From positions 1,338-65,337 of IMG/VR virus record IMGVR_UViG_2778261398_000002: a DNA stretch of 64,000 nucleotides. The stretch is one strand, 5' to 3'. The position numbers and the translations under genes are program-made. Shown piece by piece: positions 26,412 through 63,142 of this stretch. The notes beneath the pieces were generated by a model. The model was given only the letters and a program-made list of their open reading frames with translations. It had not been told where the DNA came from and made no database searches. The stretch comes from a virus. Lineage: Duplodnaviria > Caudoviricetes. Each line of letters opens with the position of its first letter. The stretch's first letter is position 1.

Positions 26412-26786
26412 ATGCAACTCTATACCGTACAACTGGGTCAATGGCGTCTCGTCCCACCCGATGTTGAACTGGTGGACACCACAGTCAAGTCAGGCGCCAA
26501 ATTCCTTGCTCCTACGTGGGACATGGTCATGGGTGTGAAGGACGGCTCGTTAACTGAAGAACAGTACACTGTTCAGTATTACGCTATGATGCGTGAAAGT
26601 TATCGTCGTAACAAAGAACAGTTCTTGGCGTTGCTGGGTAAGCCCGCTGTTGCCTTGGGTTGTTACTGTAAACCCGGAGACTTCTGTCACCGTCTGTTGT
26701 TGATTGATATCCTGAAAAGGATCGCAATAGTCAACGATATACATTTTGAATACGTGGAAGAAATAAAGTCGGCCATCGGAGACTAG
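26412..26786 (+). CDS. DUF488/DUF4326-like protein
   Basis: FLAPTWDMV and VALGCYCKPGDFCHRLLL motifs. Confidence 0.7.
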   Translation: MQLYTVQLGQWRLVPPDVELVDTTVKSGAKFLAPTWDMVMGVKDGSLTEEQYTVQYYAMMRESYRRNKEQFLALLGKPAVALGCYCKPGDFCHRLLLIDILKRIAIVNDIHFEYVEEIKSAIGD

Positions 26787-49850: not shown

Positions 49851-49973
49851 GTTTATCCTCCCAACAAGGAAATGCAATGTCCAAACACATCATCGAATCG
49901 GGGACCGGGACAACCGCCAACAGCGGATGTTCTTACCAAACGTCGTTAGGATAAAAAAGCAGGAGTAATTTTT

Positions 49974-50216
49974 GTGGAAAGGGATTTAATCAAAGTTATT
50001 GCAACACGACCAGTTACCCTCCGCCGAGAGATACCTCGGCCATGGTGGGCCTTTTGGAGAACCAAGTACAGCTATATTAACCAGACCCAGACCGTTGTTC
50101 TACATGAGTCTGTTGATAAACGAGAGTACAGACAGAATCTGGATCTCCAAAAGAAACGAGATGAGAAATACCCGGCTTCAAAGGGCTGGGTGATCCACTA
50201 CGTACCTGTAGATTAG
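49974..50216 (+). CDS. hypothetical protein
   Basis: 80 aa, GTG start with AGGAG RBS. Confidence 0.6.
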   Translation: MERDLIKVIATRPVTLRREIPRPWWAFWRTKYSYINQTQTVVLHESVDKREYRQNLDLQKKRDEKYPASKGWVIHYVPVD

Positions 50217-50285
50217 GCATGTAGTATTTTTACTTCAACAACGAAACCTATGTGAACTTCAACCCGTAACGAAGAAGGTGCTAAC

Positions 50286-50609
50286 ATGAAAATCAAAGAC
50301 ACAACACTGATCAATGACATGCTCGTGTTCCTGGCCAAGGACTCCGACAAGGTAGTCGGCCGCGTAGACTTTCTCGCCAAGACGAGAATGGGTGTTCGTG
50401 TTGACGACACCATCCAACTGTCATTCGACGTTGTCGACCGCGACGACAGCCTCACCCTCGGCGACACCGTATCGATCGCCGTCGGCACCGGCGAGATTCA
50501 AATTGTTGAATCTGCCTTCAAAGAAGACAAGTCAGAAACCAAGCGGAAGAAAGAACCGTCGTCTGCCGGTTGTTCGTCCAAGATCAGTCTGACTGCCGAG
50601 CGTCTCTGA
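50286..50609 (+). CDS. hypothetical protein
   Basis: 107 aa, AAGGTG RBS, beta-rich pattern. Confidence 0.65.
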   Translation: MKIKDTTLINDMLVFLAKDSDKVVGRVDFLAKTRMGVRVDDTIQLSFDVVDRDDSLTLGDTVSIAVGTGEIQIVESAFKEDKSETKRKKEPSSAGCSSKISLTAERL

Positions 50610-50615
50610 TAAAAT

Positions 50616-50646
50616 AAAAAAGAAAGGGCGCTGCCCTTTCTTTTTT
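50616..50646. terminator. intrinsic terminator
   Basis: AAAAAAGAAAGGGC-GCT-GCCCTTTCTTTTTT. Confidence 0.9.
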
Positions 50647-50664
50647 CTCTAATAGGATCACCCC

Positions 50665-51195
50665 ATGACATCAATTGTCTTCCACGACGGGATGCTGGTA
50701 GCGGATCAAAAGCACCTGATAATGCTCTCCCCGTTCCAGACTTACCTCGCTACCAAAATCTTTAAGTCTTCTGACGGACAGTTCTACTTTGCATACACCG
50801 GACCGACCATCGGACCCGACGATGTAGAGCGAATGGAACGCTATTCCCGAAGAATCATCGAACGGTCGCTGGCGATGGGGTCTCGGAAACACCCTATCGA
50901 GTCAGTTCTGTGTGGCGAGGAGCCCGCTTTTGCAGGTAACGGTATTCTGGTCACCAAGACGAATCAGTTTGCCGTTGTTCACGAAGGCGAAGAGATACGA
51001 CGACTTGACGGAGCTACACACGGAGCAGGATCGGGCGGTACTATCCTAGCCACCATGCTCATGGGAGGATGTCCCGTCAACGTTGCCATGCAGCGGTTGC
51101 AACTGGTAGATCCGTTGTCCTCAGTCGAACACGACGTCGTCTACTCGAAACGACTCAAACAGTTCAGAGTCACAGGAGTCCCCAAATGTCCCTGA
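50665..51195 (+). CDS. HslV/proteasome-beta-like Ntn hydrolase
   Basis: Thr after Met (MTSIV), LVAD, ATKIF, FAYTG, GAGSGG and VDPLSS match the Thr1/Asp17/Lys33/Ser129/Asp166 pattern. Confidence 0.75.
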   Translation: MTSIVFHDGMLVADQKHLIMLSPFQTYLATKIFKSSDGQFYFAYTGPTIGPDDVERMERYSRRIIERSLAMGSRKHPIESVLCGEEPAFAGNGILVTKTNQFAVVHEGEEIRRLDGATHGAGSGGTILATMLMGGCPVNVAMQRLQLVDPLSSVEHDVVYSKRLKQFRVTGVPKCP

Positions 51196-51791
51196 GTATG
51201 GTGTTCTATAGAAACGGTCGGGTCGGGTTCCCCATGGGACCACGGGCGACTTCCGTCAGCGATCATGTCCACATCGAGGACGATATCTCAAGTTACTTCA
51301 CCCCCGATGGGTTCTATTACCCCATCCGTAACACAGGCCCGGCCATCAGCGACATTCTCAACAACCGAGTGCCGTTCATTTCACATCCAAGGCTACGTTT
51401 TTTGTCCGCCTACATTCACGTCAACAAAGAAGGTCTGTTCTGTCAGGTGACCGCATCTAAGGCCCTTGACAACGAAGTAGAGATCTCGATGACAGACTTG
51501 CCGATGGGACAGAGGTCCTATCTCATTTCGTCGGACGACTGCAATGCACGCGACAGTGCTGTGGGTGCGATGCTTGCGTGTAAGACTGAAGAAGACTTCC
51601 AGAAACTAACAAACGACACCTTCGTGTTACAGGGCAGAGAGATCGTTTGGATGTCCCTGGAAGATTTGATCCGACGGTGTCGGATCGTGTGGGCTGACGA
51701 TATCAAGGGTCCGGGTAACGAAGCCCGGGAAATGCGAAAGAAACTGCAAGCAGAGCGAAAGCAGAAAGCGGCCAGTGCTGAAGAAAAATAA
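51186..51791 (+). CDS. degenerate paralogue of the upstream Ntn hydrolase
   Basis: SMVFYRNGRV, FTPDGFYYPIRNTGPAI and AVGAML align by eye with the upstream gene; catalytic residues absent. Confidence 0.55.
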   Translation: MSLSMVFYRNGRVGFPMGPRATSVSDHVHIEDDISSYFTPDGFYYPIRNTGPAISDILNNRVPFISHPRLRFLSAYIHVNKEGLFCQVTASKALDNEVEISMTDLPMGQRSYLISSDDCNARDSAVGAMLACKTEEDFQKLTNDTFVLQGREIVWMSLEDLIRRCRIVWADDIKGPGNEAREMRKKLQAERKQKAASAEEK

Positions 51792-61181: not shown

Positions 61182-61243
61182 GATAGGACATACCAGAACA
61201 GGTGTGTTTGCGCAAACAAAACCTATGTAGAAGGAAGATAAAG

Positions 61244-63142
61244 ATGGCAGTTAAACGCGGTGGTGGTGATAACCACATCCCTGGGAACGAAGAAGCAACA
61301 GTAATCGGTGGTCAGAAGTCGGCTACTGTATCTCGCCGTGGTGGTCTGTCGGCGCTGGCCGGTCCCTTTGGTGGCCCGATGTCCCGCACCGGCGCCAGCA
61401 AGGGCGTGACTGAATTCGCAGATGCCTTCAAGGCGCTGCTTGAGAAGGAAGTCGAAAGCAAAGAACTGGGCTTCAAGGTAACCATCCTCGACAGCTCTAT
61501 CAGCAACGCGGCATTGAGCGCCATCATCATCACGCTGCTCCGCAGCCAGGGCGGCAAAGAGTGCGTCACCGCGCACACCATGCTGGTCGAAAACTCCGGT
61601 AAGCTGATGCCGCGCACCGTTACGGTCGGCCAGAAGCAGTTCGAATTCGCTGTCACTGCCGGTGACGTAGCAGACAACAGTCTGATGGCTGAAGTCAAGC
61701 AAGCGGTTACCGACCTGTTCGGCGGTCGCAATGTTCAGGTCGTCGACGCCGGCGCATCGGTCATCCCGACCGAGCTGTCCATCGATGACGAGCAACACGT
61801 TCGCAATGTGCTGTACGGGGCAACTGTTGCCTGCTGGACCACCATGGTCAGCCTGGGCTTCATCGACGAGCCGCCGTTCACCGCTGAATGGGTTGAAGAT
61901 GGCAACCGTCTGCAATCCACCATCCACTTCAACCCGGCTGATCCGGCCGAAACCCTGGCGGGCCTGCCGGTCCGTAACGACATCGAAGTTGTCCTGCAAG
62001 GTTCGGTCTCGAGCCAGAGCAATGGTCAGATGGAACGTGCAATCGACATCACCAAGGTGACCGGTTACACTGACATCATCTACACGCCGCCTCAGTCGGC
62101 ACAGCAGCACAGCTTCTTCAACCAGAACCAACCGGTACAGATCGAACCGTACTTCACTCCGGTGTTCGTAATGACTTCGCTGGCTACCGAGATCAGCGCT
62201 GCCACCATGGAACTGCACCTGGCCGGTATCGCCAGTACTCTGGTTCTGCTGAACGGCACTGGTGCCGGCGTACCGCCGTGGATGAACGGTTTCCGTCAGA
62301 ACTACCGCATCAAGGCAAACGAAGTTGATGTTCGCGACATTGGCGCGATCGGCTACTTCATGAACCTGACCGGTGATCCGAATGCCAAGCCGACCCCCGT
62401 CGCTACCAAACTGGACAGCTTCGGTACTCGTGGTCTGTACAGCCTGCTGCACGCTGCACTGCACCCGGGCCTGGTGTTCGCCATGGATGTCGAAGAAGTA
62501 TCCGACACCTCCTGGATCAACCTGGCGTTCATCGCTGCTGCCGGTGGCAACCGCGAAGCCATTGCGCTGATCAACGGTGCGGCAGACACCCTGACTCTTG
62601 GTAACTTCTCCAAGATCTGGGACGCAAGCCAACCGATCGCCTACGACACTCAGAACCGTATCCACACCGGGTACTACTTCGATGACGCTGGCGTGAAACG
62701 CGACCTGCGTGACCTGGACCAGCTGGCCATGGCCAACCTGGTTGGTGGCTCTGATCGCGATGCAGCGATTCTGTGGGGCGACAGCTTCTCCCGTACCGAC
62801 ATCCCTGGTGTCGAGCGTCTGGAGCGTCGTGAGCAGATGATCCGCACTCGCTTCCAGTCCGTCAAGTTCAAGGGCTACGCTCGTCGTATCAACTTCAACC
62901 CGAACTGGCTGGCCGCTCTGGGCGAAGCGTGCGCCGCCGCCGGTCTCCGTATCCAACCCAATAACCCGACTCAAGAGTTCGGTGATGCGGGTCGTCACGG
63001 TGATCCGAACGCAATGCAGTACGCAATGCAGGGTGTTAACAGCAACCTGTTCAGCTTCACTGGCAACCAACGTACCTTCGGTGCGTCCTTCAGCCAGCCG
63101 AGCTTCGGTGGTAGCTACCGTCGTCCGGGTGGTGGACTCTGA
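61244..63142 (+). CDS. chmA: chimallin, major phage nuclear shell protein (phiKZ gp54 / 201phi2-1 gp105-like)
   Basis: 632 aa, highly biased codon usage, flexible Gly-rich termini, located directly upstream of nvRNAP beta' and near the DNA polymerase. Confidence 0.82.
   Translation: MAVKRGGGDNHIPGNEEATVIGGQKSATVSRRGGLSALAGPFGGPMSRTGASKGVTEFADAFKALLEKEVESKELGFKVTILDSSISNAALSAIIITLLRSQGGKECVTAHTMLVENSGKLMPRTVTVGQKQFEFAVTAGDVADNSLMAEVKQAVTDLFGGRNVQVVDAGASVIPTELSIDDEQHVRNVLYGATVACWTTMVSLGFIDEPPFTAEWVEDGNRLQSTIHFNPADPAETLAGLPVRNDIEVVLQGSVSSQSNGQMERAIDITKVTGYTDIIYTPPQSAQQHSFFNQNQPVQIEPYFTPVFVMTSLATEISAATMELHLAGIASTLVLLNGTGAGVPPWMNGFRQNYRIKANEVDVRDIGAIGYFMNLTGDPNAKPTPVATKLDSFGTRGLYSLLHAALHPGLVFAMDVEEVSDTSWINLAFIAAAGGNREAIALINGAADTLTLGNFSKIWDASQPIAYDTQNRIHTGYYFDDAGVKRDLRDLDQLAMANLVGGSDRDAAILWGDSFSRTDIPGVERLERREQMIRTRFQSVKFKGYARRINFNPNWLAALGEACAAAGLRIQPNNPTQEFGDAGRHGDPNAMQYAMQGVNSNLFSFTGNQRTFGASFSQPSFGGSYRRPGGGL

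Follow-up and report, generated by a model that had tools for sequence, protein, structure and literature searches.

Bacterial HslV (ClpQ; MEROPS T1B; PDB 1M4Y, 1G3I, 4HNZ) is the described enzyme most similar to the first member (gene 1) of the gene pair reported here. The two proteins are alike in size (≈175 aa), begin with Met-Thr without a propeptide, and share equivalents of Asp17, Lys33 and the GSGG loop; HslV is also the best structural match of gene 1. Gene 1 differs from HslV in its low sequence identity (11–18%), in falling below the Pfam thresholds and in having an N-terminal hairpin that is 4 residues shorter. It is furthermore accompanied by a dead paralogue, which HslV is not, and it lies on a contig without an HslU-type ATPase. 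We know of no case in which HslV is paired with a dead paralogue. The 20S proteasome resembles the pair in that active and inactive members of one fold are encoded together, and its β subunits are the top matches of the second member (gene 2). In eukaryotes the β3, β4, β6 and β7 subunits of the 20S particle are inactive. Unlike the 20S α subunits, gene 2 has neither the H0 gate helix nor the helices H1/H2, and the ATPases linked to its relatives have no HbYX tail.

To our knowledge, viral proteases of the proteasome family are known merely as single, uncharacterized genes. The available text on PPH, AAH and CPH presents these phage proteasome homologs as stand-alone, compact group-I proteasome-like proteins of tailed phages (Fuchs et al., 2021; PMC8665760). 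In that text they are single genes, with no active/dead pair, OB-like partner or AAA linkage, and our comparison of gene 1 with them is one of descriptions. Gene 1 matches PHROG 1040 (“peptidase HslV family”). Another paper on giant phages lists HslV genes without HslU (PMC7823757). In the archaeal proteasome-like ligase connectase (PDB 6ZW0, 8JTU), as in the model of gene 2, the first pair of helices is missing from a proteasome-like fold (VIA Z 5.2–5.8). Connectase has a Thr1/Ser1 nucleophile, and an S3/S4 insertion is its signature; gene 2 has no conserved nucleophile.

The initial annotation of this DNA stated that no such pair had been described in a phage. This agrees with the literature searched as far as the pair is concerned, but single phage proteasome homologs have been published (PMC8665760). 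The supplements of the paper on Erwinia phage RAY do not mention gp56 and gp57, the RAY counterparts of the pair, and a 2026 review of jumbo phages mentions neither HslV nor proteasomes. What appears to be new, in the literature searched, is the conserved active/dead pair; single phage proteasome homologs, and the HslV annotation of relatives of gene 1, were already known.

The window, i.e., the whole stretch of 64,000 nt analyzed here, encodes chimallin (PHROG 4795) at positions 61202–63142. It also encodes a β subunit of a multisubunit RNA polymerase, a tail sheath, a terminase and a DNA polymerase, a set like that of phiKZ. The stretch is present in marine metagenomes, and the source phage is a marine chimallivirus, i.e., a nucleus-forming giant phage. 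Its chimallin shares at most 33% identity with that of any isolated phage. Given this divergence and the marine metagenomic origin, the chimallivirus is deep-branching and uncultured. CheckV puts the completeness of the contig at ≈24%.

All features of the locus lie on the plus strand, apart from a symmetrical hairpin. A small conserved gene (≈107 aa; 50286–50609), recognized by family alignment and HMM, precedes the pair. Gene 1 (176 aa; 50665–51195) follows, with an AGGA ribosome-binding site (50654–50657) 7 nt before its ATG. Gene 2 comprises a core (residues 1–174; 51186–51707) and a Lys/Glu-rich C-terminal helix (residues 175–201), which together with the stop codon occupies 51708–51791. 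Read from the ATG at 51186, it has 201 aa and overlaps gene 1 by 10 nt, as stated in the initial annotation, and all three sequence blocks quoted there are present in this reading. An AGGAG ribosome-binding site (51174–51178) lies within the 3′ end of gene 1, 7 nt before this ATG. An alternative public gene call starts gene 2 at the ATG at 51198, with zero overlap, and the homologs begin with M-N-x-x-hydrophobic-Y-R at a position between these two start codons. Equivalent GGAG/GGGG signals are found in the relatives, where the two genes of the pair usually meet in a 4-nt ATGA or GTGA overlap and otherwise in a gap of 0–1 nt. These signals indicate that gene 2 is translationally coupled to gene 1.

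Between the small gene and gene 1 there is a hairpin (50616–50646) with a perfect stem of 14 bp, an A-run on one side and a T-run on the other, although the three genes are syntenic everywhere. The hairpin is listed on the minus strand, yet its stem is symmetrical and a T-run is found on the plus strand too, so that it is terminator-like on both strands. By acting as a partial terminator or by influencing RNA stability, it could fix how much small protein is made relative to the protease pair.

The motifs on which gene 1 had initially been assigned to the Ntn proteases (the M-T start, LVAD, TKIF, AYTG, GSGG and DPLS) are all there. Residues 1–166 match PHROG 1040 with E = 6e-6. A Pfam search gave no family for gene 1 at E ≤ 10, and the threshold of the Proteasome family PF00227 was missed. 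A word-indexed protein search returned a single relative for gene 1 and only its own entry for gene 2, and the search for related loci with the single proteins found zero relatives of either. With a family profile of eight members, gene 1 matches Thermotoga maritima HslV (1m4y) in the PDB with E = 0.0056, and the conserved Lys and the GSGG motif are placed on the corresponding residues of HslV. The AlphaFold model of gene 1 has a pLDDT of 89.6 and a pTM of 0.86. A Foldseek search of the PDB with this model, a check proposed earlier, ranks HslV chains first (E = 4e-7 to 3e-6, TM ≈0.6), followed by proteasome β5.

In the gene 1 family, D14, K31, G46 and G122-S-G-G, the equivalents of Asp17, Lys33, Gly47 and GSG(G), show little or no variation. 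The M-T start is found in 14 of 15 loci (the exception being RAY, with Ser for Thr), the Asp and Lys in all 15, and GSGG or GTGG in 12. As the PHROG, profile and model matches agree and the catalytic residues are kept, gene 1 is identified as an HslV-type Ntn threonine peptidase whose active site is intact in sequence and which is far diverged from cellular HslV. The homologs and the PHROG match also indicate that both gene 1 and gene 2 are real genes under selection.

The gene 1 ortholog of RAY (gp56; L024:3062–3610) has Ser at the Thr1 position after an annotated N-terminal extension of 6 residues. It also has GNG instead of GSG, and a conserved late Asp is replaced by Asn. Gp56 may use Ser, may need processing, or may be inactive, and because of the Ser and the GNG, activity may vary within the gene 1 family.

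By sequence, gene 2 gave nothing meaningful in Pfam, PHROGs or the PDB, whether searched as a single sequence or as a profile. An exhaustive search found ≈10 relatives of 170–190 aa (E = 9e-24 to 5e-5). The alignment of gene 1 with gene 2 that had been made by eye is insignificant as a sequence comparison (BLASTP E = 0.53; hhalign probability 1.9%); the kinship of the two proteins rests on predicted structure. The AlphaFold model of gene 2 made with the alignment of its relatives has a pLDDT of 89.3 and a pTM of 0.77. A model from the ESM Atlas was unfolded (pLDDT 0.39), gave uninformative neighbors and was discarded.

With the AlphaFold model, the top 50 Foldseek matches in the PDB are all proteasome or HslV chains, with weak scores (best E = 3.6e-3). 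The all-against-all alignment with VIA gave mainly proteasome β subunits, connectase, BPH, Anbu, HslV and other Ntn hydrolases (best Z 5.5). A second look with VIA reached Z = 6.2, with ≈137 residues aligned on proteasome β from the N-terminus of both proteins. The match to proteasome, HslV and connectase covers the β-sandwich and H3/H4 (128–141 residues, rmsd ≈4.2), at Z values of 5.5–6.2 that lie below the safe level of the tool. In the viral library BFVD, the model finds its neighbor from Pseudomonas phage pPa_SNUABM_DT01 (E = 3.7e-10), many proteins of giant phages, and phage HslV-like proteins (E = 3.6e-4 to 5e-4). Since Z alone is below the safe level, the fold call is based on how uniform the hit lists are, on the collinear alignment and on the gene context; taken together, these make a trimmed Ntn/proteasome-like fold probable for gene 2.

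In the model the first strand spans residues 5–9, H1/H2 are absent and replaced by a one-turn helix (54–58), H3/H4 are kept, and a conserved C-terminal helix is gained. The loss of Thr, Lys and GSG had been noted for the copy in the window and extends to the whole family, no member of which keeps any of them. After Met, the family has Asn, Ser, Met or, in DT01 alone, Thr, and because this residue varies, there is no conserved nucleophile. The charged C-terminal helix described earlier is predicted (residues 175–200 of the model), but it is peculiar to the copy in the window; the homologs stop earlier or bear different charged or basic tails.

The suggested analogy with the β/α organization of the 20S proteasome holds for the combination of an active with a dead member, but not for the identity of the dead one. 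With H0 and H1/H2 absent, gene 2 is not α-like and is better described as a dead β-like partner. In known complexes H1/H2 form the layer that touches the α rings or HslU, and the H3/H4 side makes the ring-to-ring contacts in known rings. Because one helical layer of the canonical sandwich is absent, assembly of gene 2 into a ring is uncertain.

A survey of co-occurrence, which had been proposed as a check, showed that the pair recurs as a unit. The order small gene, HslV-like gene, gene 2-like gene was recovered with HMMs in 13 loci (the window, DT01 and eleven metagenomic or IMG/VR loci). A gene 2 homolog directly follows the HslV-like gene (173–185 aa) in every contig that reaches far enough, and a gene of ≈105 aa stands in front. 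In DT01 the block comprises PA10_00288–291. Distant versions of the block are found in RAY (gp55–57, with hhalign probabilities of 97.6% for gp56 and 85% for gp57), in Ralstonia phage RSF1 (ORF138–136, with ORF137/136 as the pair) and in Serratia phage PCH45 (QFP93175/93160), where the second gene is recognized by structure and length alone. These four blocks are like that of the window in gene order, sizes and overlaps, with homology detected by profile or structure. They are annotated as hypothetical, except for “putative protease HslV” in DT01. No gene 2-like match was found in phages Goslar, Eowyn and LucasX, and the block is therefore accessory among the chimallin-encoding giant phages. 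RAY gp117 and gp118 and a 198-aa gene after the pair of locus L012 were considered as extra paralogs and rejected, as they gave no profile match.

The pairwise identities of the gene 1 and gene 2 families correlate (r = 0.92, 78 pairs), and since they track each other the two families have been inherited together. Gene 2 evolves faster, with a mean identity of 31% within the family as compared with 40% for gene 1.

We consider it somewhat probable (≈0.55) that the pair forms an HslV-like protease of heteromeric type, to which gene 2 contributes a partner subunit without catalytic function. In such an enzyme gene 1 would be the catalytic subunit; removal of the initiator Met would expose Thr1 as in HslV, and Thr1 would work together with the equivalents of Asp17 and Lys33 and with the GSGG loop. 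Gene 2 would be a diverged copy of the gene 1 fold from which nucleophile, lysine and H1/H2 have disappeared, and translational coupling would keep its synthesis matched to that of gene 1. Its place in the assembly with gene 1 would be structural or regulatory, comparable to that of the inactive β subunits of the eukaryotic 20S proteasome, and the retained H3/H4 side is the one used for ring-to-ring contacts in known rings. The ≈107-aa protein belongs to the block and may serve as an adaptor or client; in some relatives the block also includes a classical AAA ATPase. We infer that the two proteins form a physical complex, that its substrates are proteins rather than small molecules, and that it has a role in infection.

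Co-inheritance and coupling would equally fit a transient regulator or chaperone. Gene 2 could be an assembly chaperone that leaves again, or an inhibitor or latch that silences gene 1 until a signal arrives, with gene 1 alone forming an HslV-like double ring. Dedicated assembly factors are established for proteasomes, and the missing H1/H2, the faster evolution of gene 2 and its variable, charged C-terminal tails would all suit such a role. On the other hand, one-to-one translational coupling is commoner for stoichiometric subunits. Moreover, we are aware of no proteasome chaperone or inhibitor that is an Ntn-fold paralog. We regard a chaperone or inhibitor as unlikely and the partner subunit as the better description of gene 2.

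If the heteromeric protease is real, the conserved active/dead pair would be an independent viral re-invention of the heteromeric proteasome design, with a constant small companion and, in many of the relatives, an ATPase at its side. Nucleus-forming phages would then own a regulated proteolysis of their own, possibly for remodeling of the cell, turnover of phage proteins or counter-defense. The block is directly testable, since it is present in the cultured phages RAY, RSF1, PCH45 and DT01.

The observation that no AAA+ partner is encoded nearby holds for the 65-kb contig, in which searches with PF00004 and PF07724 gave none. Likewise, tblastn of the contig with four of the AAA proteins that adjoin the block in relatives (cassette AAAs), with that of DT01 and with RAY gp116 found nothing. 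As the contig is a ≈24% fragment, no conclusion on the phage as a whole follows from this absence. The cassette AAA is an orthologous ATPase of ≈400 aa that adjoins the block in nine loci with 48–73% identity (DT01, L004, L007, L008, L030–L033 and L035). Among the four isolated phages with the block, DT01 alone has it. A search for it in RAY, PCH45, LucasX, RSF1 and Goslar, run without a positive control, gave no match. It belongs to the classical AAA clade (PF00004) and not to the HslU type; the solved structures nearest to it are those of p97, Rix7 and NVL. It aligns without gaps to a p97 D2 chain, the sequence of which we take, from wild-type p97, to have no aromatic pore loop 1. The C-termini of the cassette AAAs are unconserved, and HbYX is absent from them. 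Lacking pore loop 1 and HbYX, the cassette AAA is unlike a canonical threading unfoldase.

It has to be considered whether the block as a whole might be a proteasome-like machine that nucleus-forming phages encode for themselves and that is complete in itself. Active and dead subunits would sit in a heteromeric ring of new architecture, and the small protein, possibly of OB fold, together with the AAA, in the many relatives that have one, would deliver specific host or phage proteins to it. Because the adjacent AAA has neither pore loop 1 nor an HbYX tail, a complete “phage proteasome” is unsupported, and we think this extended version improbable.

An ATPase could also act in trans, be it host HslU or a distant phage AAA, on a homo-oligomeric HslV made of gene 1; gene 2 would then be a remnant of a duplication with no role, or an unrelated one, with respect to the protease. 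That gene 1 finds its best structural matches in HslV itself would suit such an enzyme, as would the ≈76% of the phage genome that is unseen. RAY encodes an HslU-like ATPase, gp116, 37 kb away from gp56/57, and this “HslVU” protein was reported in the phage nucleus (bioRxiv 10.1101/2023.02.24.529968). However, gp116 has no relative in the window, and homologs of it and of the cassette AAA are lacking from the contig as a whole. Since gene 1 is only 11–18% identical to bacterial HslV, docking of HslU is not implied. The conservation of gene 2, its confident fold and its strict linkage in more than 13 loci argue against a remnant. A homo-oligomer served in trans is quite unlikely when these points are weighed, and we retain the heteromeric protease.

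Locus L034 (4917–7400; IMGVR_UViG_3300011868_000001), on a giant-phage contig, has the cassette AAA and the small protein with no HslV-like or gene 2-like ORF after them, and tblastn detected no remnants of these. As it keeps the one part without the other, this locus suggests that the AAA and the small protein form a unit that can be separated from the protease pair. In RSF1, the 420-aa product of ORF139, upstream of the block, is a P-loop protein that is not an ortholog of the cassette AAA; the Walker A motif alone aligns.

Homologs of the small gene of the window precede the pair in DT01 and in L003. Its family was found by HMM in 13 loci, and RSF1 ORF138 is a further member (hhalign 64%). 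The proteins consist of a domain of ≈75 residues, a variable linker, a nearly conserved Gly-Cys and a short tail; the Gly-Cys lies ≈12 residues before the C-terminus, also in RSF1 ORF138. In the ESM Atlas model (pLDDT 0.64), the commonest structural neighbors are the OB domains of PAN/Rpt (PF16450), with TM ≈0.5, and there are faint sequence matches to the OB insertion of RuvBL2. As a weak lead, the small protein may have an OB fold, and it may be an adaptor, a client or a processed substrate.

The last of these roles would follow if the pair were a connectase-like enzyme that processes or ligates at a specific site, with the Gly-Cys protein as its dedicated substrate. Like gene 2, for which it is one of the best structural matches, connectase has no H1/H2 (PMC8665760). 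The small protein is invariably linked to the pair and has the conserved G-C followed by a tail of ≈12 residues. Against this, the intact protein, gene 1, resembles HslV and has H1, and the connectase-like trimming is found in the dead gene 2; moreover, the Gly-Cys is missing in L010. A connectase-like pair is therefore very unlikely in our view.

In Xanthomonas phage LucasX, the nearest chimallivirus to the window by chimallin, two separate matches to PHROG 1040 (217–253 aa; L021 and L023, 228222–228818 and 27911–28465) have no adjoining gene 2-like profile match. LucasX may have a different arrangement of proteasome-like genes. For RSF1 ORF137 (L039:2028–2597), the annotated start seems to be too far downstream; the match to the gene 1 profile begins at position 131096 of the record, and reading from there gives ≈190 aa that start at the N-terminus of the family.

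Contigs from marine metatranscriptomes of one study match the small gene, gene 1 and the genes in front of them in part (window positions 49953–50992), with 95–100% identity, which is a weak hint that the phage or a close relative was active in the sample. Gene 2 is uncovered by these contigs, a gap that proves nothing; the data are contigs, and DNA carry-over is possible. Finally, an ORF at 26412–26765 of the window is 42% identical to a 125-aa gene that lies directly downstream of the pair in PCH45; the two phages thus have this gene in common, yet the synteny around the pair differs between them.
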